Shown in pieces: positions 1-24,519 of a stretch of DNA of 24,519 bases. A program made the position numbers and the translations under genes. The notes under the pieces are model-generated. The model worked only from the letters and a program-made list of their open reading frames with translations, had not been told where the DNA came from and made no database searches. The stretch's first letter is position 1; each line of letters opens with the position of its first letter. Origin of the DNA: a virus (taxonomy: Duplodnaviria > Caudoviricetes); the IMG/VR virus record IMGVR_UViG_3300005805_000473, positions 1 through 24,519 of that record; one strand, 5' to 3'.

Positions 1-2
1 CT

Positions 3-149
3 GCCCTGAAGGACCATCCAGAAGCCTTCAGCCTGAAGTCACCATCAGCCATTGCCGACCTGAAGATTGAGGTGTCCGAAGACCTGATTGGCGTGAAGCA
101 GGCAGCGGCATCACTGGCGAAAGAGAAGGCCCAAAAGGCCCAAGACTAG
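3..149 (+). CDS. 3' end of a truncated CDS, possibly a DUF2800/Cas4-like phage nuclease C-terminus
   Basis: Open frame from the window edge (ALKDHPEAFSLKSPSAIADLKIEV...KAQD) ending TAG at 147-149. LKSPSAI resembles DUF2800 C-terminal motifs; the product call is weak. Confidence 0.5.
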   Translation, partial: ALKDHPEAFSLKSPSAIADLKIEVSEDLIGVKQAAASLAKEKAQKAQD

Positions 150-163
150 AATCCTCATTCCCC

Positions 164-200
164 AAAAGAAAACCCCGGCATGACGCGAATCATGCCGGGG
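164..200 (-). terminator. Hairpin with upstream A-tract; intrinsic terminator on the minus strand or RNA structure
   Basis: Perfect 11 bp stem CCCCGGCATGA (173-183) / TCATGCCGGGG (190-200), 6 nt loop, preceded by AAAAGAAAA, which is a U-tract on the minus strand. Confidence 0.55.
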
Positions 201-232
201 GAATTTGCAAAGAAATCAAGGAGAAGTTTGCG

Positions 233-2377
233 ATGAGTATTTTACCGGATCAACACGCATCCACGTTTGAGCAGTCCCAGGCCATTGCCCTCAAGCTAGG
301 CAACGCCTACCAAGCCGCTAGCTTCTGCACCTTCAGCCTCGACGGCTCCAAGAAACTCCCCTACAAGCGTGACGGCTCCATGGGCGTGGCCCGAGACACC
401 CCAGCCGACAACCTGTTCACCACCGAGGACATTTGGGCCATGGAGGCCATGCCCTCCGGCCAATACTTTGGCCTAGTCCTACAAAAGGCGGCAGCCATCC
501 CCGGTAAGGGCCACTTGGTGGTGCTGGACGTTGACCTCAAGCACAGCCAGACCACCACCAACATGGCGATTCAGAAGATGGCCCGGTGGGTCAAGGCCAA
601 CAAAGCCCTGACTGAAATCAGCGTCTCAGGCAAGGGCCGCCACATATTCCTGATCGCCAAAACGGCCGAGAACATCCTCCCCAAGTACAAGCTGGCAGCA
701 GGCCAAGAGATCGAGGTCTTTGGCCTCGACAACAGCGCAGGCAAGTCAGTGCTACTCAGTGGCTCTCAACTCACTGGCGACATCATCGAGGTGGATGACC
801 TGCACGCCCTGCTGACCGAGTGGGGCATCATTGAGCAGCACCAACTGAACCAGCCCAAGACAGCGCCACAAGCCCCCATCGACTTCAGCCCCATCCTCCA
901 GCCCCAAGACGATTACGCCCGTGCGGCCAATGCCCTCCAGTTCATCAGCCCTGACATTGAGTACGACCAATGGATTGAACTGGGCCAAGCCCTCCACACG
1001 GCCTTTGGCGGCCAAGGCAAGGACTTGTGGCAGCAGTGGTCATCATCTGGCTCCAAGTACCAAGGCGACAAGGACATCGACACCCACTGGAAGTCCTTTC
1101 ACCAAGGCAAAGGCGTGACCCTTGGCACGCTGTTTCACACGGCCAAGCAAAACGGCTGGGAGTCACCCACCAAAGCCACTGAGCGCAAATCAGCCGTGGA
1201 AGACTTCCAAAACATATTGAATCCAGTACCTGTTGCGACAGGCTCACCGGATGAGCCACTGCCATTGAACGCACTGCAAGGCTGGCCGGAACTCCAGTTG
1301 GACATCTCCAGCCTCAAGCCGATTGAATACTTGATCCAAGGCTTTTGGGCGCATTCCTTCTTTGTCTTGGCAGGGCAGCCAGGAGTTGGCAAGACCACGG
1401 CCATGATCGCCGCCTGCATGGTTATGGCCGGGTTCCAGATTGGTGATGCACCACTGACCGCCAAGACCCGCCGCAAGACCATATTCGTCACAGAAGACTC
1501 AGACCAGATCACCCGCACCCTGTTTGCCTATTCCAAGCACTTCCACATCGACCCCATGGAACTGCTGAACTGGTTTGTAGTGATTGATGCCAAGCGCTCG
1601 GATGTCAAGGATCTGCTCACGCTGGCCCATAACGTCATGCGCCACACGGTTGATGGCATCCGGCCACATTTGGTCCTAGACACGGCCAACAGCACCATGG
1701 CGATTGACAACGAGAACGACAATTCCGAGGTCGGCAGCTACCTCGCAGCCCTAAAGCAGACCATTTATGTCCAACTGCACACGCCCATCTCCATCCTGAC
1801 CCACACCAACAAGACTATTTCCCGCCAGGACTCAGATGCCATGGCCCGTGGAGCCAGTGCCTTCACAGGTGATGCAACGCTCACTGGCATCCTGTTTATG
1901 GACGAGGACAACACCCGTTACCTGAAGCTGACCAAAACCCGCTACGAGCCAGATTTCAGGGAAATCAGGTTCGACAGTCAGCTATTTCCCGAAATCGTGA
2001 TCGACCAGAACGGCGAGCCACAGACCATGTTGTGCCGCATCGCCATCCCGATGGCCTCCAGTGAGACTGACCGTAAACAACTCAACGCCTCTAAGCAAGA
2101 AGACAAGCGCCAGCAGCAGATCACTGATGCCGCCGATGCCGCCTGCAACTTTATCCAGACCCTGATCAATCAGCACCACAACGTCATCATGCGCAAAGGG
2201 CCAGGTCGCCCAAACGTGCCAAAAGAACTGTCAGATGCCTATCAATTGGAGTGGCAAGAGGTTTACCAGGCGGTGCCAAGTGCCGACCAGTCATATGCCA
2301 GAAAGGCTGTTGGGGCTGCCATATTCCAGCGGTTTGGCATTGCTCCAAGTGCCAGTGGTTGGGTCAGATTGGTCTAA
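233..2377 (+). CDS. Primase-polymerase / PriCT-2 / AAA (RepA-like) helicase fusion
   Basis: AEP-type motifs VVLDVD and SVSGKGRH; PriCT-2-like YDQWIELGQALH...WQQWSSSGSKY...HWKSF...TLGTLFHTAKQNGW; Walker A GQPGVGKT, Walker B LVLDT; SD AAGGAG upstream. Confidence 0.9.
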   Translation: MSILPDQHASTFEQSQAIALKLGNAYQAASFCTFSLDGSKKLPYKRDGSMGVARDTPADNLFTTEDIWAMEAMPSGQYFGLVLQKAAAIPGKGHLVVLDVDLKHSQTTTNMAIQKMARWVKANKALTEISVSGKGRHIFLIAKTAENILPKYKLAAGQEIEVFGLDNSAGKSVLLSGSQLTGDIIEVDDLHALLTEWGIIEQHQLNQPKTAPQAPIDFSPILQPQDDYARAANALQFISPDIEYDQWIELGQALHTAFGGQGKDLWQQWSSSGSKYQGDKDIDTHWKSFHQGKGVTLGTLFHTAKQNGWESPTKATERKSAVEDFQNILNPVPVATGSPDEPLPLNALQGWPELQLDISSLKPIEYLIQGFWAHSFFVLAGQPGVGKTTAMIAACMVMAGFQIGDAPLTAKTRRKTIFVTEDSDQITRTLFAYSKHFHIDPMELLNWFVVIDAKRSDVKDLLTLAHNVMRHTVDGIRPHLVLDTANSTMAIDNENDNSEVGSYLAALKQTIYVQLHTPISILTHTNKTISRQDSDAMARGASAFTGDATLTGILFMDEDNTRYLKLTKTRYEPDFREIRFDSQLFPEIVIDQNGEPQTMLCRIAIPMASSETDRKQLNASKQEDKRQQQITDAADAACNFIQTLINQHHNVIMRKGPGRPNVPKELSDAYQLEWQEVYQAVPSADQSYARKAVGAAIFQRFGIAPSASGWVRLV

Positions 2378-2555
2378 TCCGGTAATCCGGTAGTAATCCG
2401 GTAGTAATGCGGTATACCGGATTAGACAATGGCTGGGTCTGGGGATTAAGTGGGGGCTATTTGCCCCACTTATCCACAGGCCAGTCTCGGACAAATGCAT
2501 GGTTTTGGGGCTAATCCGGTAAGGCGGTAAATTCCTTTGGGGTCTACCGGATTAG
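2372..2555. repeat. Iteron-like TAATCCGGTA direct and inverted repeats; putative replication origin
   Basis: TAATCCGGTA at 2375, 2383, 2394, 2512; TAATGCGGTA at 2405; reverse complement TACCGGATTA at 2415 and 2545. Located immediately after the primase-helicase gene. Confidence 0.75.
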
Positions 2556-2630
2556 GAATACTCATAAGGTATACAGATTTTTGAGGGGTAAATTGATGAT
2601 GATTTCAGAGTTATCCACAGGTTATCCACA
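2470..2630 (+). promoter_or_regulatory. DnaA box cluster 1 (three perfect boxes)
   Basis: TTATCCACA at 2470-2478, 2611-2619 and 2622-2630. Confidence 0.8.
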
Positions 2631-2943
2631 GGCTGCAAACTGGGTCGAGGATGACCGCGTTTTGTGCCAAAACTGCGCTAATGCGGTAGAAGTCGATTGC
2701 AGGCAGTCAATGCCAGCAGAGCAGATGGAAAAGCACCGCAAAGTCAATGCGAGGCCGTTGCAATGGATGTTCGACAGCGCCAAGGTCAGGAACGGCTGGG
2801 CGACAGTCAAATGGAAGGAATGGCAGTGCCAAGCAACTGGCATGGCCGCCATGCCCATGGATCTCAAGCACCGCTGCCATTTGTATTGCAAGGCAACAGC
2901 CAAGCCATCATCGGTAGAATCCGACTCATGGTGGCAAGACTGA
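2596..2943 (+). CDS. Hypothetical Cys-rich, putative Zn-binding protein
   Basis: ATG at 2596 with SD GAGGGG; CQNC...C...HRCHLYC pattern. Confidence 0.65.
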   Translation: MMISELSTGYPQAANWVEDDRVLCQNCANAVEVDCRQSMPAEQMEKHRKVNARPLQWMFDSAKVRNGWATVKWKEWQCQATGMAAMPMDLKHRCHLYCKATAKPSSVESDSWWQD

Positions 2944-3305
2944 GAAAAAGCATCGAACACACTGAGCAGGTCAAACTGGTGCAGCGGGTCCGAGCGTTTT
3001 ATCCAGATGCCATCATTGCGGCAATACCGAATGGAGGCGATAGAACGGCTTCAGAGCGCGTTAGGCTGCATGGTGAGGGGGTACTGGCTGGAATGCCTGA
3101 TCTGTGCATCCTAGAGGCTTGTGGAGGGTTTCACGGGCTGTTTGTGGAGATGAAGACGGCCACAGGGCAGCAGAGCAAAGAGCAGAAGGCTTTGCAGTTG
3201 CAATTAAACAACAGGGGATACCTCTGCACGGTCGCCAGATCGGCAGCAGAAGGGTTTGAAATGATTAAGGAGTATCTGAATGGCAAGCGCAAACACACTG
3301 TCTGA
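2928..3305 (+). CDS. VRR-NUC (PD-(D/E)XK) nuclease / Holliday junction resolvase-like
   Basis: IPNGG...GVLAGMPDL...LFVEMKT...SKEQK motifs; start reassigned to ATG 2928 within ORF 2697-3305. Confidence 0.88.
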   Translation: MVARLRKSIEHTEQVKLVQRVRAFYPDAIIAAIPNGGDRTASERVRLHGEGVLAGMPDLCILEACGGFHGLFVEMKTATGQQSKEQKALQLQLNNRGYLCTVARSAAEGFEMIKEYLNGKRKHTV

Positions 3306-3774
3306 AGTGGCTGACAACATTGCCGCCAGGCAGATGAATCAACGCGAGATGGCAACCGTTGATCGCCAAGAGATGAGCGCCATCAATAAAAAGATCCACG
3401 CCTTTGGCGGTGAAGCTATGCTCTTTGACCATATTGCACAAGGTAAGACCGTGGATTCGATGATTAAGGCGCTCGGGGTGAGCATTGGCGGCTTTTACAA
3501 ATGGGTTGATAGGGATGCAAAGCGGGGAGAGCTTCTCGCTCGCGCACGCACGCGAGGTGGGCAGAGTTTAGCCGAGCAGACGCTGGAGATCGCCGACAGC
3601 GCGACCCCGCAAGAGGCGCAGGTCGCCAAGCTGCGCGTCGATACGAGGCGCTGGCTGGCCTCCAAGATGAACGATGACTACGGCGACAAGCAGCAGCCGC
3701 TGGTCAACATCGACTTGGGCAGCATGGCGCTCGATGCACTGCGCAAACGCAGCATTACGCATACCGAAGACTGA
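3280..3774 (+). CDS. terS: Terminase small subunit (Sf6-like)
   Basis: N-terminal HTH-like segment (FYKWV) and LEIADS...AKLRVDTRRWLASKM..DYGDK signature. Confidence 0.85.
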   Translation: MASANTLSEVADNIAARQMNQREMATVDRQEMSAINKKIHAFGGEAMLFDHIAQGKTVDSMIKALGVSIGGFYKWVDRDAKRGELLARARTRGGQSLAEQTLEIADSATPQEAQVAKLRVDTRRWLASKMNDDYGDKQQPLVNIDLGSMALDALRKRSITHTED

Positions 3775-3778
3775 CGTC

Positions 3779-3806
3779 ACTTCATACAACGTCCATTATG
3801 TTAAGT
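3779..3806 (+). other. XerC/XerD recombination site (dif/psi/cer-like)
   Basis: ACTTCATACAA-CGTCCA-TTATGTTAAGT in 11-6-11 layout. The right arm has one mismatch to the E. coli dif XerD arm TTATGTTAAAT; the left arm ends TACAA as in cer. Confidence 0.8.
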
Positions 3807-3816
3807 CGATGCTGAG

Positions 3817-3905
3817 ATATCCACAGATTTATGGATACGTTTGGTATAGGTTTGTAGTTATCCACAGAAATCTGTGGATAACTGTGGACAAAACCCTGTG
3901 GACAG
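3817..3905. promoter_or_regulatory. DnaA box cluster 2
   Basis: ATATCCACA 3817, TATGGATAC 3830, TTATCCACA 3858, TGTGGATAA 3873, TGTGGACAA 3883, TGTGGACAG 3897. Boxes at 3858 and 3873 form a 13 bp inverted repeat (3856-3883). Confidence 0.8.
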
Positions 3906-3907
3906 GT

Positions 3908-4024
3908 CGGCCAGCGCCAGCCGACTGGCCGCCGCGACCCCCCCATCGGGCGGCGCGGCGGGGGCGCGGCTGTGGCGGTGCCTGACCTCTATCTACATAC
4001 CCTGCTCAAAAAAAATTTTTTAAA
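3908..4024. other. GC-rich hairpins followed by an A8-T6 tract; possible packaging or terminus signal
   Basis: CGGCCAG/CTGGCCG (3908-3931); GCCGCG-A-C7...G5-CGCGGC (3931-3970); AAAAAAAATTTTTT (4008-4021). Function is inferred. Confidence 0.4.
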
Positions 4025-4100
4025 GTAATGTCGTAAATAGGCAACATCCACTCACAATAGTTGCGCTAAACTGCAATTCCTATCAACCAGGAGTTAAACG

Positions 4101-4265
4101 ATGAACACGACATATCTGATCAAGGTGAGGGCCATGTACCCGAATAGTCGGCACAACCAGAGGCAGTGGGTTAAGAGCATTCGCCATTTGGGCAGCCGCT
4201 GGCTGGTGGCGCAGCCGCAGCCGCATGACAAGCTGCGTGAGCAGGCAGCGGGGCGGTGTGTATGA
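4101..4265 (+). CDS. Small hypothetical protein (54 aa), not in the ORF track
   Basis: SD AGGAG at 4089-4094 region; MNTTYLIKVRAMYPNSRHNQRQWVKSIRHLGSRWLVAQP...; ATGA overlap with the next gene. Confidence 0.75.
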   Translation: MNTTYLIKVRAMYPNSRHNQRQWVKSIRHLGSRWLVAQPQPHDKLREQAAGRCV

Positions 4266-4426
4266 ACTGCTGCGACGACTATGGCAACTGCCGACAGGGC
4301 CGGGACTGCCCGATCCGCAAGGAGATGGAGGCCGAGCCAACCCCTGCTGACGGGCAGTTGATTTGGATACTGTGGGCCTTCATCGTGCTGATGCTGGGGC
4401 TGTTGACACTGAGGAGTTGTTTATGA
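4262..4426 (+). CDS. Small Cys-rich membrane protein (54 aa), not in the ORF track
   Basis: MNCCDDYGNCRQGRDCPIR... with a C-terminal hydrophobic helix LIWILWAFIVLMLGLLTL; ATGA overlaps at both ends. Confidence 0.75.
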   Translation: MNCCDDYGNCRQGRDCPIRKEMEAEPTPADGQLIWILWAFIVLMLGLLTLRSCL

Positions 4427-4992
4427 CCAAAGACAAAGCATTGGACTTGGCGCTGGAGGCGTTGGAGAAAATTTTCAGAACCTACTATCACATTGAAACA
4501 CCACCGATTGAAAGTCTTGAGGAGAAGATGCGGCGCATTGCTGACAAAGCCATCACCGCCATCAAGCAAGCCGTTGCCCTCGACAAGAAGGCAAAGGAAC
4601 ACATGATCTACAGAACCTTTGAACAGTGGAAAAGTGGCAATGTGCTGGAGCATGGCATTCCACGCACCGAGTATTACAGCGAAGACCAACTCGATCTGGT
4701 TGAGATGGGTTGGAACTATGGCTACGATGCTGGCCGCGCAGTGGAGCAAGCCCTCGACAAGATGGCAGAGAACGCCAGAGAGTTGGGGTTGGACTATGAG
4801 CCCGCTGATAGCACTCAGGTGTCAAAGGTCTGGTGGGATGGCGAGAAGCTGATGGCTAAACCGATCCCGCGTGAGGACTTTTACCAGCCAGCCGTGCCTG
4901 ATGCCTTTGGAACCCGTGAAGGTGAGCATCCCCAGTACATCGAAGGCTGGAACGATTGCAGGGCAGAGATGCTGAAAGGAATGAAACCATGA
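4423..4992 (+). CDS. Hypothetical mosaic phage protein
   Basis: Start MTKDKALDLALEALE with SD GAGGAG and ATGA overlap; ends GWNDCRAEML, a common phage accessory motif. Confidence 0.75.
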   Translation: MTKDKALDLALEALEKIFRTYYHIETPPIESLEEKMRRIADKAITAIKQAVALDKKAKEHMIYRTFEQWKSGNVLEHGIPRTEYYSEDQLDLVEMGWNYGYDAGRAVEQALDKMAENARELGLDYEPADSTQVSKVWWDGEKLMAKPIPREDFYQPAVPDAFGTREGEHPQYIEGWNDCRAEMLKGMKP

Positions 4993-5207
4993 ACGAAGCA
5001 GCAAAAATATGGATGGCTACAAGGCGGTCAGCCTTTGACTCTAAACATTCTGTTTACGGCAGAAGCACGTCCGTTGAGATCGGAACGTACAAGTGTGAAA
5101 TCTGCGAAACAACAACGACCATCATGTCGATTGATGGGTCAGGCGGTGAGTACGGTTCGTTTGACTGCTGCAAACCTTGTTTTGACAAACTGTGGGAGAA
5201 GCCATGA
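4989..5207 (+). CDS. Small putative zinc-ribbon protein
   Basis: CEIC...CCKPC; ATGA overlaps on both sides. Confidence 0.65.
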   Translation: MNEAAKIWMATRRSAFDSKHSVYGRSTSVEIGTYKCEICETTTTIMSIDGSGGEYGSFDCCKPCFDKLWEKP

Positions 5208-5506
5208 CCCCAGTCAGACAGCAAAAGGTGCGCAAGCTGCTGCGAGAGCATCCTGGTGGTATGACCCCGATGGAAATTTCAGGGATTACGGGGATGCACG
5301 TTGCCAATGTCAGAACGGCACTGAGGGCCATGCCGGATGTGTATGTGGACCGCTGGAGGATGGGCAAGCGTGGGCAGTATGAGAAGGTGTGGATTGCTGT
5401 CCATGTGCCCGAGGACTGTCCGCATCCCAAAGACCGCCTCAAATGGGGTGCGCACTACACAAAGCCAAAGACCCAGTGGGTCATTACTGAAGGAGCAAGA
5501 GCATGA
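5204..5506 (+). CDS. Putative winged-helix/HTH DNA-binding protein
   Basis: LLREHPGGMTPMEISGITGMHVANVRTAL HTH-like pattern; ATGA overlaps. Confidence 0.65.
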   Translation: MTPVRQQKVRKLLREHPGGMTPMEISGITGMHVANVRTALRAMPDVYVDRWRMGKRGQYEKVWIAVHVPEDCPHPKDRLKWGAHYTKPKTQWVITEGARA

Positions 5507-5793
5507 GTCAGGAAAAATTTAGGCCGCAGGGTATGAGCATTGAGATGCTGGACGCTGGTGCGAACGGCCTCACCGCGGATGACATCCAAGTCAGCGGCAG
5601 TCATTACAAGGACATGCCGATGCAGCCGTGGCATGTGATGGAGGCGGTGCTGACCGCCGAGGAGTTCAAGGGGTTCCTCAAGGGCAACATCATCAAGTAC
5701 AGCATGAGGGCTGGCCGCAAAGATGGGACGGATGACGCTGGCAAGGCCAGGCACTACGCCCAGAAGCTGCAAGAGGTGCAGGGCAAGGCATAA
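5503..5793 (+). CDS. DUF3310 family protein (T7 gp1.7-like)
   Basis: QVSGSHYK...EEFKGFLKGNIIKYSMRAGRK...DAGKARHY signature. Confidence 0.85.
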   Translation: MSQEKFRPQGMSIEMLDAGANGLTADDIQVSGSHYKDMPMQPWHVMEAVLTAEEFKGFLKGNIIKYSMRAGRKDGTDDAGKARHYAQKLQEVQGKA

Positions 5794-5802
5794 TTGCCAA
5801 CT

Positions 5803-7212
5803 ATGGCAAATGACAACGTATTCAAGCAGTGGGTGGACAGGTATCACCCTGACCCGGTGCTGTTTGTGCAGGAGGTGCTGGGGGTTGACCCTGACCCCTG
5901 GCAGATTGAGTTCTTGAAGGCAATTGCCCGAGGTGATCGCAAGATCTCGGTGAGGTCCGGCCACGGGGTGGGCAAGAGTACGGCATCCTCATGGGCCATG
6001 CTGTGGTACTTCATGACCCGCAGCCCGGTGAAGGTGGTGGTGACTGCGCCGACATCCAGTCAGCTTTACGACGCGATGTTTGCGGAATTGAAGCGCTGGA
6101 TCAACGCGATGCCGCTGCCGCTCCAAGGGCTGCTCACGGTCAAGCAGGAGCGGATTGAGTTCAACGCTGCGCCCACTGAGATGTTTATCTCGGCGCGGAC
6201 ATCACGGGCAGAGCAACCAGAAGCCTTGCAGGGGATTCACTCCGAGAATGTGATGCTGGTGGCCGACGAGGCCAGCGGTGTGCCAGAGCAGGTGTTTGAG
6301 GCGGCGGCAGGGTCCATGTCCGGCCACAACGCTGTCACGCTGCTGCTGGGCAACCCGGTGAGAAGCAGCGGGTTTTTCTACGACACGCACACGCGCCTGG
6401 CCGACGAGTGGACCACGTTTCAGGTGTCGTGCCTGGACTCGCCACGGGTGAGCGACGAGTACGTCAAAGAGATGCAGATGCGCTACGGCGAGGAGAGCAA
6501 CGTCTACCGCATCCGAGTGGTGGGCGAGTTCCCCAAGGGCGATGACGACACGGTGATTGCAATGGACTTGCTGGAGCAGGCGGTCACCCGCGATGTGGCC
6601 CCCAGCCAACACGCACCCGTGGTGTGGGGCTTGGATGTGGCGCGGTTCGGCAGTGACCGCAGCGCGCTGTGCAAGCGCCAGGGCAATGCAATGACCGAGG
6701 CGGTGCGGACTTGGAAGAATCTGGACCTGATGCAACTGACGGGTGCGGTGGTGGCCGAGTACAACGCGCTGCCGCCCAGCCAGCAACCCAGAGAGATTCT
6801 GGTGGACAGCATCGGCCTTGGGGCTGGGGTGGTGGACCGCCTCAGAGAATTGAACCTGCCAGCCCGAGGCATCAACGTGGCCGAAAGCCCTGCGCTGGGC
6901 GGGACGTACAGGAATTTGAAGGCTGAACTGTGGTACAGGGCCAGAGCGTGGCTGGAGGCGCGGGACTGCAAGATGGCAAAGGACGAGGTGCTGATTGCTG
7001 AACTGGCGACGGTGCGCTACAGTTTTACGAGCAACGGCAAGATTCAGATTGAGGGCAAGGACGAGATCCGGCGGCGGGGACTGCCTAGTCCCGACAAGGC
7101 CGATGCGTTTGTGCTGACCTTTGCAAGTGACGCGATTGCGGGGATGTACGGCTCGGCGGGGAGCAACAAGTGGAGCCAGCCGCTGCGCCGAAACCTGTCG
7201 CGGGTTGCATAA
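5803..7212 (+). CDS. terL: Terminase large subunit
   Basis: PWQ adenine-binding motif, Walker A SGHGVGKS, Walker B LVADEASG, coupling motif GNP, nuclease GLDVARFGSD...SPDKADA. Confidence 0.95.
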   Translation: MANDNVFKQWVDRYHPDPVLFVQEVLGVDPDPWQIEFLKAIARGDRKISVRSGHGVGKSTASSWAMLWYFMTRSPVKVVVTAPTSSQLYDAMFAELKRWINAMPLPLQGLLTVKQERIEFNAAPTEMFISARTSRAEQPEALQGIHSENVMLVADEASGVPEQVFEAAAGSMSGHNAVTLLLGNPVRSSGFFYDTHTRLADEWTTFQVSCLDSPRVSDEYVKEMQMRYGEESNVYRIRVVGEFPKGDDDTVIAMDLLEQAVTRDVAPSQHAPVVWGLDVARFGSDRSALCKRQGNAMTEAVRTWKNLDLMQLTGAVVAEYNALPPSQQPREILVDSIGLGAGVVDRLRELNLPARGINVAESPALGGTYRNLKAELWYRARAWLEARDCKMAKDEVLIAELATVRYSFTSNGKIQIEGKDEIRRRGLPSPDKADAFVLTFASDAIAGMYGSAGSNKWSQPLRRNLSRVA

Positions 7213-7237
7213 TCTGGGCTAACCAACTGGAGGTTCT

Positions 7238-7423
7238 ATGCCGATGAACAAAGCCGCCAAGAAAATTGGCAAGGTCATGTCAGAGTACAAGGCTGGCAAG
7301 CTGCACAGCGGCGGCACTGGCAAGGTGGTGAAAAACCCCAAGCAGGCGGTCGCCATTGCCATGAGTGAAGCCAAGATGCCCATGCGCGGCCAGCGCACAG
7401 CAACAAACAGGAGCAAGAAGTAA
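7238..7423 (+). CDS. Small basic protein, DUF6496-like
   Basis: KVMSEYKAGKLHSG...VKNPKQAVAIAMSEA; SD GGAGG. Confidence 0.75.
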   Translation: MPMNKAAKKIGKVMSEYKAGKLHSGGTGKVVKNPKQAVAIAMSEAKMPMRGQRTATNRSKK

Positions 7424-7902
7424 TGGCAACGCTAAAGCGCACCATGGAGCAGGCCATGGACATGGAAGAAGGCGACGACATGGAGGAGGGCAGCAACTGC
7501 CCGATGCCAACACAAGACATCACGCTGAACCTGAAGAACAGGGCCAAGGCGATTACCAGCGCGGCCTATGGGCCGCAAAACCCCAAGCTGCCCAACCGTG
7601 CGTTTTGGGCAAAGAAGGCTGACGCATGGGATGTGTCAGAGAAGGAAGCCAAGACGAGCCTGTGCGGGAACTGCGCGGCCTTCAATGTGTCCGATGACAT
7701 CAAAGAGTGCATTGCCGAGGGCATTGGCATGGAGGCTGACCCATGGGGCACGATTGAGTTGGCTGATCTTGGATATTGCGAGATTTTCGATTTCAAATGT
7801 TCCGCATCTAGAACTTGTTCGGCATGGGTAGTGGGTGGTCCCAACACTGGTGAGCAAGAGGGTGAGGACATGGAAGGCGAGTACGAGGAGGGCGAATCAT
7901 GA
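7423..7902 (+). CDS. Acidic Cys-motif protein with HiPIP-like metal/Fe-S ligand pattern
   Basis: CGNCAAF...GYCEIFDFKCSASRTCSAW, with acidic N- and C-terminal tails. Confidence 0.65.
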   Translation: MATLKRTMEQAMDMEEGDDMEEGSNCPMPTQDITLNLKNRAKAITSAAYGPQNPKLPNRAFWAKKADAWDVSEKEAKTSLCGNCAAFNVSDDIKECIAEGIGMEADPWGTIELADLGYCEIFDFKCSASRTCSAWVVGGPNTGEQEGEDMEGEYEEGES

Positions 7903-8054
7903 AAGGTCTTTATGCGAACATTGCTGCAAAACGTGCTCGAATTGAGGGAGGCTCTAAAGAGAAAATGCGACAGCCTGGAAGCAAGGGTGCGCCAACGGCT
8001 GCTGCTTTTAAGGCAGCGGCTAAAACGGCCAAGCCAGTAAAGGCCAAGAAATGA
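7899..8054 (+). CDS. Small Lys/Ala-rich basic protein (51 aa), not in the ORF track
   Basis: MKGLYANIAAKRARIEGGSKEKMRQPGSKGAPTAAAFKAAAKTAKPVKAKK; SD GGAGGG; ATGA overlaps at both ends. Confidence 0.8.
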   Translation: MKGLYANIAAKRARIEGGSKEKMRQPGSKGAPTAAAFKAAAKTAKPVKAKK

Positions 8055-8347
8055 AGACGCCAGCCTGGCAGCGCAAGGAGGGCAAAAGCCCAAGCGGTGG
8101 CTTGAATGCCAAGGGCCGGGCCAGCGCCAAGGCCGAGGGCATGGACCTCAAGGCGCCAGTGAAGTCTGGCGACAACCCACGGCGTGCCAGCTTCTTGGCA
8201 CGCATGGGCAATATGCCTGGGCCTGAGATGAAGGGTGGTGAGCCAACACGGCTGCTGCTGTCCCTGAAGGCTTGGGGCGCATCCAGCAAGGCTGACGCCA
8301 AAGCCAAGTCGGCTGCGATTTCTGCGAGAAACAAGGCGAAGAAATGA
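8051..8347 (+). CDS. Basic protein, DUF6321-like
   Basis: AWQRKEGKSPSGGLNAKGRAS...RRASFLARM...SLKAWG. Confidence 0.75.
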   Translation: MKTPAWQRKEGKSPSGGLNAKGRASAKAEGMDLKAPVKSGDNPRRASFLARMGNMPGPEMKGGEPTRLLLSLKAWGASSKADAKAKSAAISARNKAKK

Positions 8348-9033
8348 TCCCCATTTGTATTGCGACTGTCCATGGCAAGGGCTTGGCGGTGCTGCTGGAG
8401 TCCATCAAACAGTACGCACCCGAATGCCCGGTCTATCTGCGCGGCCCTGAGTCGGTCATTGGAAACTCCATCGCCGACCTCAAGATTTACGGCCAGCCGA
8501 GCAACTTTGGCGATGATTACAACCATGTGATCGGTGAGGCGCTCAAGGACTGGAACGATTGCATAGTGGCAAACGATGACATCGTGCTGACCCCTGACAG
8601 CGTGAAGACGCTGATGGAGGATGTGCAGATCGTCAAGAGTATGCACAGCGCCAAGGCTGGGTGGATTGCCTCGCGCAGTGATGCCGCGCGGCCATGCCAA
8701 AACGTGCGGATCTGTGAGCCGGGTGAGAGGCTGCACTTTTACAAGTTCTCTTCCGAGAACTTCATCCGCATGGTCGAGGAGGTCAGCCCCATTTTTGCGT
8801 ACATCACCAAAGAGGCATTTGGCGAGGGGTTCCCCCCACTGAATTGGTACTCGGACGATGTGCACTGCCGGGATCTGATCGAGCGCGGGTTCAGCCACTT
8901 TGTCAGCGCGTCCTATGTCCACCACATTGGCAGCCACACAATTGGCTTTAATGCAAAGAAACTGCACGACGAGGCGCTGCCTTGGTTGCTAGAGCACAGG
9001 CCGGAGTATGCAAAAGCCTGGTTTGACGCTTAA
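8344..9033 (+). CDS. Glycosyltransferase, GT-A fold / GT2-like
   Basis: IVANDDIVL (NDD), WYSDDVHC acceptor motif, VHHIGSHT C-terminal His motif. Confidence 0.78.
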   Translation: MIPICIATVHGKGLAVLLESIKQYAPECPVYLRGPESVIGNSIADLKIYGQPSNFGDDYNHVIGEALKDWNDCIVANDDIVLTPDSVKTLMEDVQIVKSMHSAKAGWIASRSDAARPCQNVRICEPGERLHFYKFSSENFIRMVEEVSPIFAYITKEAFGEGFPPLNWYSDDVHCRDLIERGFSHFVSASYVHHIGSHTIGFNAKKLHDEALPWLLEHRPEYAKAWFDA

Positions 9034-9541
9034 TTTAGGCTCGGGCAAGGACTGGCGCGAGGACTGCCTAAATGCCGACATCCAGTCCAGCAAGAAGCCA
9101 GACTGGGTTTTGGACATCACCACCATCCCGTGGGGTGAGACAATTGCCACAAGGCTGGGCGCGTTGGAGATTCAGCGCGGGATGTTTGATGTCATTCTTG
9201 CCAACGATGTGCTGGAACACATCCCCGACTTGGTGGCGGCCATGACCAACTGCAAAGAACTGCTGCGAGTCGGCGGGGAGATGCGGATTCATGTGCCCTA
9301 TGACTTGAGCCTTGGTGCGTGGCAAGACCCGACCCATGTTCGGGCCTTCAACGAGAACTCTTGGCGCTATTACACCGACTGGCACTGGTATCTGAACTGG
9401 CCGGATCGGTTTGAGTTAACCATGCTGGAGATGCGTCTTTCAGCGGTCGGTCAGGCACTAAAATTGCCAGAAGCCGAAATCCTCCGCACGCCACGGGCTG
9501 TGGATTCAATGTATGTGGTTCTCACAAAGGTTGCACCATGA
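9008..9541 (+). CDS. Class I SAM-dependent methyltransferase
   Basis: LNLGSG motif I, FDVILANDVLEHI, LLRVGGEMRIHVP, DPTH. Confidence 0.88.
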   Translation: MQKPGLTLNLGSGKDWREDCLNADIQSSKKPDWVLDITTIPWGETIATRLGALEIQRGMFDVILANDVLEHIPDLVAAMTNCKELLRVGGEMRIHVPYDLSLGAWQDPTHVRAFNENSWRYYTDWHWYLNWPDRFELTMLEMRLSAVGQALKLPEAEILRTPRAVDSMYVVLTKVAP

Positions 9542-11739
9542 ACGAGCAAGACATCACCAACACGATCAACACCGACATCACGGCGGCCCAGCCCATGGAT
9601 GATGCCGAGTTGCAGTCCATCATCACGCAAGACCTGGTGGATGCGGTCAGCTACATCGACAGCGACATCTCGCCCACACGGGCCAAGGGCACCGAGTATT
9701 ACCGTGGCGACCTGTTCGGCAACGAGGTCGAGGGCAACAGCAAAGTGGTGGCGATGGAGGTGCGCGACACGGTGAGCGCCATGCTGCCCAGCCTGATGCG
9801 CGTTTTCTTCAGCACCGAGAACGTGGTGGAGTTTGTGCCCCGAGGCCCAGAGGATGTGGCGAACGCCCAGCAGGCGACCGATTACGTCAACTACATATTC
9901 CAAAACGACAACAACGGGTTTCTGACCAGTTACGCAATCTTCAAGGATTCGCTGGTGCGCAAGTGCGGCATTGCGAAATTCTGGTGGGAGGATGAGGAGA
10001 AGGTCCACATTGACGAGTACACGGGGCTAGACGAGCAGACGCTGCAAATGCTGATGCAAGAGCCGGAGTCCGAGGTCAAGATCGTGGTGTCCTACCCTGA
10101 CCCCGATGTGGATGAAATGCAACTGACCACGGTGGACCCGATGACGGGCCAGCCCATGGTAATGCCTGCGCCGATGCTGCACGATGTGCAGATCAAGCGC
10201 ATCACCAAGGATGGCCGCATCCGCATCATGGCCGTGCCTCCCGAGGAATTGCTGCTGGACCGCCGCGCCCGGTCCTTTGATGACTCGACCATCATTGCCC
10301 ACCGCCAGATGGCGACCGTGGCCGACCTGATCGCCATGGGTTATGACCAAGAAGAGATTGAAGAGAACATCATGTCCAACGATTTGGACAGCAATGACGA
10401 GTATCTGGCTCGCCAGCCGCTGTCCACGACATTCGGCACCAATGACGCTGCCAACCCAATGATGCGCCGGGTGCTGTATGTGGAGGCGTATTCGCGTGTG
10501 GACTATGACGGCGACGGCATTGCCGAGTTGCGCAAGGTCTGCTGCATGGGCGGCGGCTACAAGGTGGTGCGCAACCTGCCAGCCTCTTACATCCCCTTTG
10601 CCGACTTCCCCTGCGACCCCGAGCCGCATACATCGCCATTGGAGGCGATGAGCATTTTTGACATCACCCGCGACCTGCAAGAGATCAAGTCGGAGATTCT
10701 GCGCAACACGCTCGACAGCTTGGCGCAGTCCATCCACCCGCGCACAGCCGTGGTGGAGGGCCAGGTCAACATCGACGATGTGCTGAACAACGAGACAGGC
10801 GCGATTATTCGGATGCGTGCCCCCGGCATGGTCCAGCCTCTGTCCACGCCATTTGTCGGCCAGGCTGCATTCCCGATGATGGAGTACATGGACCAAATCA
10901 AGGAAGACCGCACGGGCATGAGCAAGGCGGCCATGGGCCTGAATGCCGATGCCTTGCAGTCCAGCACCAAGGCTGCGGTGAATGCCACCATCAGCGCCAG
11001 CCAAGGCCGAATTGAGTTGACAGCACGCATCTTGGCCGAGGGCATGAAGAAGCTGTTCAAGGGCATCCTGTTCTTGGTGGTGACCCATCAGGACAAGGCA
11101 CGCATGGTGCGGATGCGCAACGAGTGGGTGGCGATGGACCCGCGCCACTGGGAGTCCACCATGGATGCCAGCATCAACATCGGGCTGGGCAATGGCGACA
11201 TGAACGAGCGCCGACAGGCTTTGATGATGATCTTGGCAAAGCAAGAGCAGATCTTGCAGCAGCTTGGCCCAACCAATCCGCTGGTGACTCCGCAGCAGTT
11301 CAGCAACACGCTGCGCAAGATCGTGGAGTTGTCTGGGTTCAAGGATGCGTCCAGCTACTTCCAAGACATCCCTGCCGACTATGTGCCGCCAGCGCCGCCC
11401 CAGCCCAAGCCCACGCCCGAGCAGGTGCTGGCGCAGGTGCAGGCCGAGAGCATCAAGGCCGACATCCAGAAAAAGGCTGCTGATCTGGAACTCCAGCGCC
11501 AGCAGATGATCATGGACGATGACCTCAAACGCGACCAAATGGCCCAAGACCTGTATCTCAAGAAGTACGAAATTGAGTTAAAGTACAACTCACAGATCAG
11601 TACAGCCGAAATTGATGCGGCCCAGAATATTGATCGTGAAGCGATACGCCAGCAGGCAGTGATTGCGCAGCAGCAAGCAGCGCAGTTGATGCAACCACCG
11701 CCGCAGGCTCCATCAACCTTTAACGGAATGGCACAGTGA
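9538..11739 (+). CDS. Portal protein (P22-like podoviral)
   Basis: 733 aa, located between terL and scaffold/capsid; YYRG..FGNEVEG.SKVV, DRTGMS, Gln-rich helical C-terminus. Confidence 0.9.
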   Translation: MNEQDITNTINTDITAAQPMDDAELQSIITQDLVDAVSYIDSDISPTRAKGTEYYRGDLFGNEVEGNSKVVAMEVRDTVSAMLPSLMRVFFSTENVVEFVPRGPEDVANAQQATDYVNYIFQNDNNGFLTSYAIFKDSLVRKCGIAKFWWEDEEKVHIDEYTGLDEQTLQMLMQEPESEVKIVVSYPDPDVDEMQLTTVDPMTGQPMVMPAPMLHDVQIKRITKDGRIRIMAVPPEELLLDRRARSFDDSTIIAHRQMATVADLIAMGYDQEEIEENIMSNDLDSNDEYLARQPLSTTFGTNDAANPMMRRVLYVEAYSRVDYDGDGIAELRKVCCMGGGYKVVRNLPASYIPFADFPCDPEPHTSPLEAMSIFDITRDLQEIKSEILRNTLDSLAQSIHPRTAVVEGQVNIDDVLNNETGAIIRMRAPGMVQPLSTPFVGQAAFPMMEYMDQIKEDRTGMSKAAMGLNADALQSSTKAAVNATISASQGRIELTARILAEGMKKLFKGILFLVVTHQDKARMVRMRNEWVAMDPRHWESTMDASINIGLGNGDMNERRQALMMILAKQEQILQQLGPTNPLVTPQQFSNTLRKIVELSGFKDASSYFQDIPADYVPPAPPQPKPTPEQVLAQVQAESIKADIQKKAADLELQRQQMIMDDDLKRDQMAQDLYLKKYEIELKYNSQISTAEIDAAQNIDREAIRQQAVIAQQQAAQLMQPPPQAPSTFNGMAQ

Positions 11740-14314: not shown

Positions 14315-14781
14315 TGGCAAGACCAAGAATACCCATTGATCAAAAAATTTCAGAAAAGGTTGTAAAAATACCTGAATCGGGATGCTGGTTATGGATTGGC
14401 TCCATAACAAATCACGGATATGGAACCATGACATTGGGTAGAAATAAAAACATCAGCGCACACAGAGCATCGTATGAATTAAGACATGGACCAATCCCAG
14501 ATGGAATGTTGGCCTTACATCATTGCGACATCAAATGCTGCGTCAACCCCGACCACATTTTCTTAGGCAACCAACAAGACAACATGACCGATAAGGTCTG
14601 TAAAAACCGGCAGGCTAAAGGCAGTAAGCACGGCCAAGCCAAATTGACTGAGCAGCAAGCCAGAGAGGCCAAGTTTGGCACTGCACAGCCAACTGAATTA
14701 GCGCAGAAATTTAACTGTTCAGCCGCCATGATTCGCCAAATTCTCGGCGGACTTTATTGGAAACACTTGGAGAATAAATGA
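14314..14781 (+). CDS. HNH homing endonuclease (His-Me finger)
   Basis: SGCWLWIG...GYG...AHRASY...LHHCDIKCCVNPDHIFLGNQQDNM; ATG 14314 overlaps the upstream TGA; AT-richer than flanks. Confidence 0.9.
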   Translation: MARPRIPIDQKISEKVVKIPESGCWLWIGSITNHGYGTMTLGRNKNISAHRASYELRHGPIPDGMLALHHCDIKCCVNPDHIFLGNQQDNMTDKVCKNRQAKGSKHGQAKLTEQQAREAKFGTAQPTELAQKFNCSAAMIRQILGGLYWKHLENK

Positions 14782-15440
14782 GGAATTACATCGCAGTCTG
14801 CACGCCAGCCCGTGACCAGGTACACACCAACTACACCTATTGCATGGTAAACATGGTGGCGTACCACACGCTCAACACCCAAGACGCTATCAGTCTGAAG
14901 TTGATGCAGGGCACGATCATTCAGAATCAGCGTGCGGATCTGTGCCTCGATGCCATGCGCGAGGGCTGCACGCATATCCTGTTCATCGACAGCGACATGA
15001 CCTTCCCCCAGGACTTGGTGGGCCGCCTCTTGGCGCACGACAAAGAGATCGTGGCCGCCAACTGCGCACGGCGCAGAATGCCCACTGGCCCCACGGCGCA
15101 AGACTATGACGAGAACGGCAAGCGCATCCCTATTTACACCATGCCAGAGTCCACTGGACTGCAAGAGGTGGGAAGCATTGGGACAGGCATAATGCTGATC
15201 AAGCGTGAGGTGTTTGAGGGTATGTCCGAGCCATGGTTCGACATGCCGTGGCAGACCACCCGTGGGTACATGGGCGAGGATGTGTTCTTCTGCAAGAAGG
15301 CACAAGAACTCGGCTACAAGGTCTACATCGACCACGATGTGTCCAAAGAGATTGGGCACATTGGCACGTTTGAATTCCGGCACGACCACACCTGGATCGT
15401 GAAGGAGGAAATGGACAAAGAGGCGAACAATGGCACTTAG
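14778..15440 (+). CDS. Glycosyltransferase, GT-A fold / GT2-like
   Basis: THILFIDSDMTF (DxD), GTGIMLIKREVF, GEDVFFC, GHIG. Confidence 0.85.
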   Translation: MRNYIAVCTPARDQVHTNYTYCMVNMVAYHTLNTQDAISLKLMQGTIIQNQRADLCLDAMREGCTHILFIDSDMTFPQDLVGRLLAHDKEIVAANCARRRMPTGPTAQDYDENGKRIPIYTMPESTGLQEVGSIGTGIMLIKREVFEGMSEPWFDMPWQTTRGYMGEDVFFCKKAQELGYKVYIDHDVSKEIGHIGTFEFRHDHTWIVKEEMDKEANNGT

Positions 15441-19233: not shown

Positions 19234-19533
19234 ATGACTACCACTTGGACAATCACCCAAACCGACTACGAAGTTTCCAACGGCTTCATCACGACCGCAC
19301 ATTGGACTGCCACAGCAACTGATGGCGACTACACAGCCTCCATCTATTCCACTTGCAGTTTTGCCGCTGCTACACCATCCATCCCCTACGCTGACGTAAC
19401 CATGCAAGAGGTTTTGAACTGGTGCTGGAACAACGGTGTGGACAAAGATGCCACTGAGTCTGCCTTGGCTGCCAACATTGCCCTGCAAAAGAATCCTGTG
19501 ACTGCCACTGGCACACCTTGGAGCGCCGCATGA
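19234..19533 (+). CDS. Hypothetical tail-fiber-associated protein
   Basis: Start reassigned to ATG 19234 (SD AAGGA); MTTTWTITQ...HWTATATDG...IPYADVT...GTPW. Confidence 0.75.
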   Translation: MTTTWTITQTDYEVSNGFITTAHWTATATDGDYTASIYSTCSFAAATPSIPYADVTMQEVLNWCWNNGVDKDATESALAANIALQKNPVTATGTPWSAA

Positions 19534-23926: not shown

Positions 23927-24519
23927 ATGATGGCAACCAGAGCGCAAGTATTGGCAGCGTATGCGGCAAACCCCAAGGCCGAGTTGTTTCCAAGCGAAGC
24001 CGCCATCCAGTATTGGCAAGGCGCAGGGCTGGGGTCTTTTGATGCAACCGTGGATGCTGTGCGTGCGGAGAATCCTGCACTGGCTGCGCAGATTGACGCA
24101 CAGCGCACCGCAGTTAGCACAAACACTGGTGCCACCACGGGCGCTGCCACTGGTGCTGCCACGGGTGCTGCCACTGGTGCCAACACGGGCTTGCTGGATG
24201 CTGTAGCCGCTACCAACACGGCGGCGGCATTGGGTGGCAACACAGGGGTGGTTAACACGGGCTTGCTGGATGCTGTGGTGTCCGGCAACACAGCCGCAAC
24301 AGGCAACACAGGTGTAACCACCACTGCTAACACAGCCGCAACAGACGCGACAGATGACGGGGGGTATTCTGACGCACAAGTAATTGTGTACGGCCCTGAC
24401 GGCACCATGTATAGCAGTCCCGGCGATGCCAGAGCGGCTGGCGTGACCAACTATACAACTACCCGGCCTGCAGCCACTGGTGCAGCCACTGGTGCAGCCA
24501 CTGGTGCAGCCACTGGTGC
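23927..24519 (+). CDS. Truncated Thr/Ala/Gly-rich protein, possibly internal virion/ejection protein
   Basis: SD AGGAG, ATG 23927/23930, open to the window end (MMATRAQVLAAYAANPK...TGAATGAATG...). Absent from the ORF track because it has no stop in the window. Confidence 0.75.
   Translation, partial: MMATRAQVLAAYAANPKAELFPSEAAIQYWQGAGLGSFDATVDAVRAENPALAAQIDAQRTAVSTNTGATTGAATGAATGAATGANTGLLDAVAATNTAAALGGNTGVVNTGLLDAVVSGNTAATGNTGVTTTANTAATDATDDGGYSDAQVIVYGPDGTMYSSPGDARAAGVTNYTTTRPAATGAATGAATGAATG
24469..24519 (+). repeat. Perfect 12 bp tandem repeat (TGCAGCCACTGG) x4.25 encoding AATG
   Basis: Units at 24469, 24481, 24493, 24505; a degenerate array of the same unit lies at about 24125-24190. 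Confidence 0.95.

Follow-up and report, generated by a model that had tools for sequence, protein, structure and literature searches.

A candidate host XerC/XerD recombination site with a phased array of DnaA boxes beside the small terminase gene of a group of tailed phages

The small terminase gene (terS) of a group of tailed phages is followed by a 127-bp cassette in which a core closely similar to the chromosomal dif site of Rhodoferax stands at a fixed distance from an array of DnaA boxes, and comparison of this cassette across related phages leads us to regard it as probable (roughly 0.8) that it is a site for the host's XerC and XerD recombinases, acting on the phage's own DNA. We propose further that the site is doubled at the ends of the virion DNA, that it would circularise this DNA and that DnaA would serve as the accessory protein, a complete chain to which we give about an even chance of being correct. 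The wider generalisation, that unrelated tailed phages circularise through host XerCD with DnaA as a factor of synapsis or activation and so display a third mode of Xer control, is put forward tentatively and we think it rather doubtful.

The means by which tailed phages with short repeats and no recombinase circularise after injection are poorly known, and control of Xer recombination has so far been described through FtsK, through PepA with ArgR or ArcA, and through XafT. If the proposal is true, control by DnaA would take its place beside FtsK and PepA/ArgR/ArcA, exerted from the XerD side and on linear DNA, the establishment of the phage would be tied to the DnaA state of its host, and the cassette would be evolutionarily interchangeable with a phage-encoded serine resolvase. 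The cassette is clonable, which makes both the licensing of XerCD by DnaA and the circularisation of phage DNA by XerCD directly testable; in an abundant group of freshwater phages the sequence of its arms can also serve as a marker for predicting the host, and the cassette's natural exchange with a serine resolvase offers a rare case in which comparison of genomes bears on function in a virus that is uncultured. Newly added here are the fixed-phase array on the XerD side, the joint inversion and loss of core and boxes, the cassette's recurrent exchange with a resolvase and its placement within a projected terminal repeat.

The cassette and its conservation

The window (the whole stretch of DNA analysed, 24,519 nucleotides) represents 24.5 kb of the genome of a podovirus-like phage, the genes of which were read by profile search (Table 1). 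Its large terminase is 52% identical to that of phage phiM5 and 73% to that of MW202879.1, and the other genes recognised are a VRR-NUC gene and a portal and capsid of the SU10 type. Elsewhere in the window, ORFs with the look of glycosyltransferases or methyltransferases lie among the structural genes (8344-9541 and 14778-15440), that at 9008-9541 having weak methyltransferase matches only, and an ORF with ATGA-type peptide repeats (23927-24519) runs past the window end.

Table 1. Features of the window, in order of position; projected and candidate features are marked as such.
Feature	Position	Strand	Remarks
Primase-helicase gene (PriCT_2 + AAA_25)	233..2377	+	Domain matches
Candidate replication origin: ATCCGGT-type repeats and three perfect DnaA boxes (2470, 2611, 2622)	2374..2630	+	
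Small terminase gene terS, Sf6-type	3280..3774	+	PF20901, E 1.6e-17; phrog_1482
Projected terminal repeat, assuming the same extent as in phiM5	about 3624..3980		Extent taken from the annotation of one record
Putative XerC-binding arm, ACTTCATACAA	3779..3789	+	Host-family type
Central region CGTCCA, 6 bp	3790..3795	+	Host equivalent is TGTATA
Putative XerD-binding arm, TTATGTTAAGT	3796..3806	+	Compared with Rhodoferax dif
Fixed-length spacer, 10 bp, about one helical turn	3807..3816		Length kept; sequence conservation only 0.74
DnaA box 1	3817..3825	+	0-1 mismatch in 76/77 terS relatives
32-bp spacer, containing the 2-mismatch 9-mer 3830-3838	3826..3857		32 nt in 60/61 modules; conservation 0.73
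Head-to-head perfect DnaA boxes, 6 bp apart	3858..3866 and 3873..3881	+ and -	Array centre
Two weaker DnaA boxes	3883..3891 and 3897..3905	-	Mismatch counts in text
GC-rich hairpin containing a C-run and a G-run; candidate signal for packaging or for a genome end	3918..3972	+	Common to Xer-type and resolvase-type phages
A8T6 tract	4008..4021	+	Precedes a variable block of small genes
Large terminase gene terL	5794..7212	+	phrog_2, E 2.1e-46

Four bases separate the terS stop codon (3772-3774) from a 28-bp core at 3779-3806, ACTTCATACAA-CGTCCA-TTATGTTAAGT, in which we find the sequence features of an XerC/XerD site (xrs), namely two 11-bp arms about a centre of 6-8 bp, here 6 bp, and a match to the dif of a host. 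Compared with the dif of R. ferrireducens as given in Table 1 of PMC2731167 (in part), the XerD arm agrees at 11/11 positions and the XerC arm at 9/11, the latter reaching 10/11 when compared with several genomes of the family to which the bacterial genome G295 belongs. Both arms together match the published Rhodoferax dif at 20 of 22 positions, a score reached by none of 200 shuffles (shuffle maximum 16); a loose pattern of the XerD arm alone is not significant (31/100 shuffles). The mean column conservation of the XerD arm is 0.99 over 61 distinct modules, and its exact sequence occurs as a single copy in each of the five complete cassette-bearing relatives. The centre, on the other hand, is identical to that of the host dif in 0/215 distinct modules: its XerD-side triplet reads CCA in 180 of these, TCA in 34 and CTA in one, its XerC-side triplet is host-like in 27, and 188, the window included, differ from the host centre on both sides. 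Four loci (L064, L065, L071 and L076) form a sub-lineage with a degenerate XerC arm, two of which (L065 and L071) are also without perfect boxes at the origin candidate, and the terS of L071 falls outside the main cassette-type clade.

Beyond the XerD arm lie six 9-mers resembling the DnaA box TTATCCACA, starting at 3817 (plus strand, one mismatch), 3830 (minus, two), 3858 (plus, none), 3873 (minus, none), 3883 (minus, one) and 3897 (minus, two). A density of at least four boxes with no more than one mismatch per 100 nt was found in 0/200 dinucleotide shuffles, the largest number being two, and a relaxed DnaA consensus applied across the whole window is not significant (37/100 shuffles). Of 149 modules, 123 retain the first member of the head-to-head pair with at most one mismatch and 128 the second; the box at 3883 is kept in some sub-lineages only, while the second of the weaker positions (offset 79/80) is kept more widely. 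The DnaA of one bacterial genome (G328) has the same recognition helix as domain IV of the E. coli protein (PDB 1j1v).

Signals for other accessory factors were sought around the core. Consensus patterns for ArgR (ARG)- and ArcA-like boxes, allowing up to four mismatches, matched neither flank. The E. coli KOPS consensus, GGGNAGGG, occurs nowhere in the window, and among 138 modules one has a KOPS aimed at XerD within 500 bp; given that KOPS are almost absent, an activator other than KOPS-loaded FtsK is likely to be needed. An IHF-like score of at least 8/9 within the 32-bp spacer is seen in 40/149 modules, all of one sub-lineage, and the window scores 6/9, so that an IHF site between the boxes is not claimed. 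Several other candidate interpretations of this DNA were rejected: a 103-aa ORF across the cassette (3674-3985) has no family match and is treated as spurious, a promoter or terminator reading yields a single weak promoter-like match at chance level, and the fold z-score of -6.45 that might indicate a structured RNA is accounted for by the inverted boxes and the GC hairpin, Rfam giving no structured-RNA match in 2300-4300.

The arrangement is strongly conserved. We identified 80 terS relatives in IMG/VR at 60-98% identity, of which 77 include the terS stop; in 76 of these a spacer of exactly 10 nt leads from the XerD arm to a box with at most one mismatch, the other one being cut off. Conservation over the 61 distinct modules is 0.93-0.99 in the arms and boxes and 0.73-0.74 in both spacers. 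The fixed spacing of one turn suggests that DnaA at box 1 would share a helix face with XerD. A search pattern with spacers of 6-16 nt and no XerC arm specified is estimated to fit some 530 stored IMG/VR stretches; among the matches listed, the spacer is exactly 10 nt in 101/120, and a Rhodoferax-like XerC arm (at least 7/11) is present in 95 of the 98 listed 10-nt loci with enough flank, compared with one of 19 with other spacers. The preliminary description of this DNA had reported a Xer core 4 bp past the terS stop and DnaA-like boxes 10 bp past the XerD arm, both of which are confirmed in the sequence, and the pairing it drew attention to is indeed kept beside terS in 76 of the 77 relatives; of the six boxes it listed five recur in relatives and the sixth, at 3830, is probably incidental, being present within two mismatches in just 4/149 distinct modules.

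The cassette also moves as a unit and is found with three unrelated types of large terminase. It is inverted as a whole between terS and the hairpin in the lineage of viral genome G003. Two further genomes, G004 and G005, have the same cassette but a different head module, with a terL about 30% identical; G004 has other portal and capsid families, yet its 28-bp core is identical to that of the window. With the third type of terL the cassette adjoins a G/C run. DnaA boxes lie on both sides of the core in two loci (L634 and L654), and a set of viral contigs (L492-L497), one of them 155 kb long, has dif-like cores with DnaA boxes around them at other spacings, in some cases ahead of promoter-like sequences. 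Outside phages the combination was not recovered: an exact scan across GTDB for the XerD arm, 10 nt and a DnaA box gave 22 matches against about 13 expected under even base composition, which is near chance, none of the 22 having an XerC-like arm or phage genes, and when the module was searched with BLASTN in plasmids and in cultured phages, short DnaA-box matches were all that appeared, with no record covering 80% of the query.

Hairpin, origin candidate and exchange with a serine resolvase

Whichever terminase it accompanies, the core keeps a constant position relative to the GC-rich hairpin, which lies downstream of it, on the terL side and within about 200 bp, in 124 of the 126 oriented loci with enough flank. 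A possible meaning for this placement comes from phiM5, a cultured Sinorhizobium phage whose GenBank record annotates a 357-bp direct terminal repeat (DTR) with a C-run from base 315; the repeat ends 42 bp after the start of the C-run hairpin, just before terL. Alignment of the phiM5 segment with the window hairpin scores 67, barely above the 500 shuffles (mean 41, maximum 65). The repeat projected onto the window from phiM5 (3624-3980) would include the whole cassette and the 3' part of terS; phiM5 differs in that it has no dif in its terminal repeat and encodes an integrase. At the terS position of phiM5 (L498), an ORF annotated as hypothetical (43581-43949) overlaps the DTR and gives a weak profile match (E 0.018). 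The ends of contigs are ambiguous as evidence of genome termini: in IMG/VR the left ends of 19/52 terL-selected contigs lie no more than 412 nt upstream of the core, against a maximum of 8/49 in any window of that size in a capsid-gene control, and this cluster of ends within terS is not repeated in 67 oriented metagenome loci. The preliminary description had made no link between the site and a packaging signal or probable genome end.

A second feature of the window bears on the role of the boxes. All five of its perfect boxes fall in two clusters, the array beside terS and a group within 2470-2630 that the preliminary description overlooked, and the minimum of the cumulative GC skew, at 2243, is near the latter. 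Two to three perfect boxes follow the primase gene in 47/53 Xer-type and 23/26 resolvase-type intervals, and the repeat unit of this origin candidate differs between lineages while the boxes stay. Since the boxes beside terS are lost along with the core and the cluster on the primase side is retained, the former most likely serve the core, and the array beside terS is probably not the origin.

The resolvase-type phages are the most informative comparison. In MW202879.1, the closest GenBank relative, the hairpin and the A/T tract are kept, no core or array follows terS, and a small serine recombinase gene is found about 210 bp after terS; in such sister phages the serine resolvase gene comes after the A8T6 tract. 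Among 54 resolvase loci, 48 of which include terS, the core is present in 0/48 and there is no box between terS and the resolvase in 47/48. Conversely, no cassette-type locus has a resolvase match (0/120 among the metagenome loci), and the cassette is present in all 56 terL-selected loci that include terS. The exact XerD arm is found in none of five near-complete resolvase-type genomes, against all five complete cassette-type genomes. In pairwise comparison, homology between the two types covers terS and resumes at the hairpin, the stretch in between being the only part that differs; the resolvase gene itself sits beyond the hairpin, not inside the exchanged slot.

This exchange appears to have happened repeatedly. 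The cassette and resolvase states interleave on the terS and terL trees, and monophyly of the resolvase type is rejected both on a terL tree of 22 rows (p-AU 7e-5; the starred branches force at least three changes) and on one of terS with 37 rows (p-AU 3e-4; at least two changes), the rows in each being hand-chosen representatives and the counts being ones to which mosaic exchange can add. A 12-bp palindrome at the terS end of the slot, found in 34/36 distinct resolvase-type slots (L224-L277), is a candidate crossover site for the resolvase; it also occurs upstream of 12/140 Xer modules, and upstream of the core in G004 and G005. An invertase reading of the resolvase is not favoured, MW202879.1 being without a near-identical pair of inverted sites and the palindrome being in one copy. 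No close relative of the resolvase was found in 301 host-family genomes, a search run without a positive control.

That sister phages without the cassette carry their own recombinase gene implies that the cassette likely lets host enzymes make single circles. The resolution role that the preliminary description had assigned to the Xer site thus gains support from the exchange with a serine resolvase, and the absence of an integrase or resolvase that it noted in the window extends to whole genomes, the five complete cassette-bearing relatives having no match to PF00589, PF00239 or PF13614, and hence no tyrosine recombinase, resolvase or ParA. Its suggestion that DnaA is the initiator at the site beside terS fares badly, because the resolvase-type phages lose the array and keep the cluster near the primase gene; 'architectural factor' is the best of the three options it gave for DnaA and is the role that we predict.

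More distant relatives extend the picture. Other types of dif stand beside the same C-run in 9/69 loci, mostly without DnaA boxes, at a rate of 16 matches per Mb compared with 1.5 in shuffles; the other 60 have no dif core in the available DNA, and a minority carry a resolvase instead. As most distant relatives with a dif core are without DnaA boxes, DnaA would not be universally needed. An unannotated dif-like core lies between terS and the C-run hairpin of phage C72C1 (OQ984150.1, L499; about 19400-19425), which is a possible experimental model if cultured. In L423 (terL 71%; about 3774-3870), which groups with the resolvase-type phages on the terL tree, a different dif core is followed by a motif like the IHF consensus and then, farther off, by DnaA boxes, and in L436-L439 (terL 64%) a dif core without DnaA boxes lies about 760 bp upstream of terL, with a second, oppositely facing XerD-like arm beside the C-run.

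Probable host, proposed mechanism and competing explanations

The arms point to a host. A loose two-arm pattern occurs in 2/301 genomes of a phylum-wide sample and in 26/151 of the family of G295, XerD scores above the cut-off in all five candidate-host genomes tested, and one candidate-host genome that matches the arms carries the Rhodoferax dif exactly, from which we infer a probable host of Comamonadaceae type. At the chromosomal dif of the host a DnaA array is present at none of 27 sites, three of which have a single near-box at other positions; the array is thus specific to the phage.

We propose the following course of events, modelled in its first step on phiM5. The terminase would cut in such a way that the DNA that begins in the 3' part of terS and ends at the hairpin recurs at both ends of the virion DNA, so that the phage would carry two directly repeated cores. 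After injection, XerC and XerD would bind both cores and DnaA both arrays; DnaA oligomers would hold the two ends together and, acting from box 1 at a distance of one turn from XerD, would license strand exchange in place of FtsK or PepA. This would yield a single-site circle whose replication would start at the separate origin by the primase gene, and the same site could later resolve dimers. The non-host centre would prevent the phage from recombining with the chromosome. A PepA-type filter is favoured on supercoiled DNA (10.64898/2026.02.23.706985, in part), unlike which substrate the incoming phage DNA would be linear and not supercoiled.

An alternative that we judge unlikely, though it shares much of the evidence, is that XerCD resolves only the products of replication (dimers or catenanes in lytic growth) at a site that is not doubled at the virion ends, where DnaA may act as a directional filter. 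The motif, the mutual exclusivity and the trees apply to it equally well. The usual task of small serine resolvases, the resolution of dimers on supercoiled circles, speaks for this explanation, as does the failure of the cluster of contig ends within terS to be reproduced. What it leaves unexplained is why the core is always on the terS side of the hairpin and within about 200 bp of it, a placement that holds in three terminase lineages and in both orientations and that coincides with the interval repeated in phiM5.

The probability is low that the phage is a circular plasmid prophage in which the block comprises a DnaA-dependent origin and a dimer-resolution site. Tyrosine recombinases or small serine recombinases are common in plasmid prophages (PMC8026635, in part), the five complete relatives have no integrase and MW202879.1 encodes an RHH protein, all of which would suit such a lifestyle. 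Against it, the separate origin-like cluster is kept in both types of phage, ParA (PF13614) is found in none of the five complete relatives, the module is absent from 401 host-family genomes and from plasmid records (0 covering 80% of the query), and the GTDB-wide matches are near chance and without phage genes. The plasmid-like persistence suggested in the preliminary description is disfavoured on the same grounds, the ORFs scanned from G001, G003 and G004 also including no partition genes.

Equally hard to favour is a binding of host proteins without recombination, whether as titration of DnaA, as control of host initiation of the datA/DARS kind, as a membrane anchor of the sort proposed for the T5 injection-stop region, or as XerD-dependent unloading of SMC. 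There are precedents for its parts: DnaA-box arrays are present in the terminal repeat of T5 (10.1101/866236, in part) and the boxes were also seen by us in the T5 sequence, XerD has an SMC-unloading role independent of recombination in Firmicutes (PMC9226527, in part), and an IHF-like motif lies between the boxes in one sub-lineage. Yet both arms, the 6-bp length of the centre and the host-specific XerC arm are all conserved, and a decoy needs neither a fixed 10-bp phase to XerD nor exchange for a recombinase.

That the core is an attP integrating the phage at the host dif, in the manner of the IMEX elements CTX, VGJ and TLC, is very improbable: the arms match host dif, no integrase is encoded, VGJ integrates although the XerD side of its centre is mismatched (PMC5357621, in part) and 27/215 modules have the host's XerC-side triplet, but 188/215, the window included, mismatch both triplets of the host centre and integration would leave terS parted from terL. 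Among 401 genomes of the probable host family, a sample that may miss the true host, neither a close prophage nor the module turned up, and no host junction was recognised among 120 metagenome loci, where the uncovered sides scanned held phage-type genes. With a centre that never equals host dif (0/215) and no prophage found, the cassette is probably not an attP, and we return to action on the phage's own DNA as the preferred reading.

Comparison with known systems

A full-text literature search, with subscription papers mostly outside its coverage, gave no title or abstract opening that brings together dif and DnaA boxes in tailed phages, and the nearest systems each share part of the arrangement. 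The chromosomal dif/XerCD/FtsK system of Rhodoferax-type Betaproteobacteria resembles it in the arms (XerD 11/11, XerC 9/11); it differs in that the phage centre is never TGTATA (0/215), the window is without KOPS and the host sites are without a DnaA array (0/27).

The lox site of phage P1 has a role in cyclisation. P1 combines headful packaging with Cre (PMC8026635, Table 1, in part), and loxP/Cre is comparable in being site-specific recombination on a terminally redundant genome, which is a prediction here. The difference is that P1 encodes its own recombinase together with ParA/ParB, whereas the phages described here are predicted to use the recombinase of the host and no partition system was found in them.

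The attP sites of the IMEX elements (CTX, VGJ and TLC with XafT) are likewise phage-borne and dif-like, come without an integrase and are independent of FtsK, and XafT is an instance of a factor besides FtsK that can activate XerD (PMC9226527 and PMC5357621, each in part). Here, by contrast, no integrated form was found, the centre is mostly incompatible with host dif, the phage is a tailed dsDNA phage and the candidate activator is predicted to be a host protein bound in cis. The T5 injection-stop region shares the precisely spaced pairs of DnaA boxes in a phage terminal repeat, and the circularisation mechanism of T5 is described as unresolved (10.1101/866236, in part). It differs in that 10.1101/866236 makes no mention of Xer or dif, and no dif pattern occurs in bases 1-11000 of T5.

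There is also a likeness to psi of pSC101 and cer of ColE1, which have a dif-like core, a non-host centre and an adjoining array for host proteins, and which are used independently of FtsK on the element's own DNA (10.1101/2024.04.05.588136 and 10.64898/2026.02.23.706985, each in part). The cer/psi layout, with about 200 bp of accessory DNA beside the XerC arm, is replaced in the phage by terS coding sequence on that side. Where the accessory sequences described for plasmids adjoin XerC and not XerD (10.1101/2024.04.05.588136, in part), the phage array stands on the XerD side, 10 bp off, extends over about 90 bp and consists of DnaA boxes, and the site as a whole lies beside the candidate packaging signal of a tailed phage.
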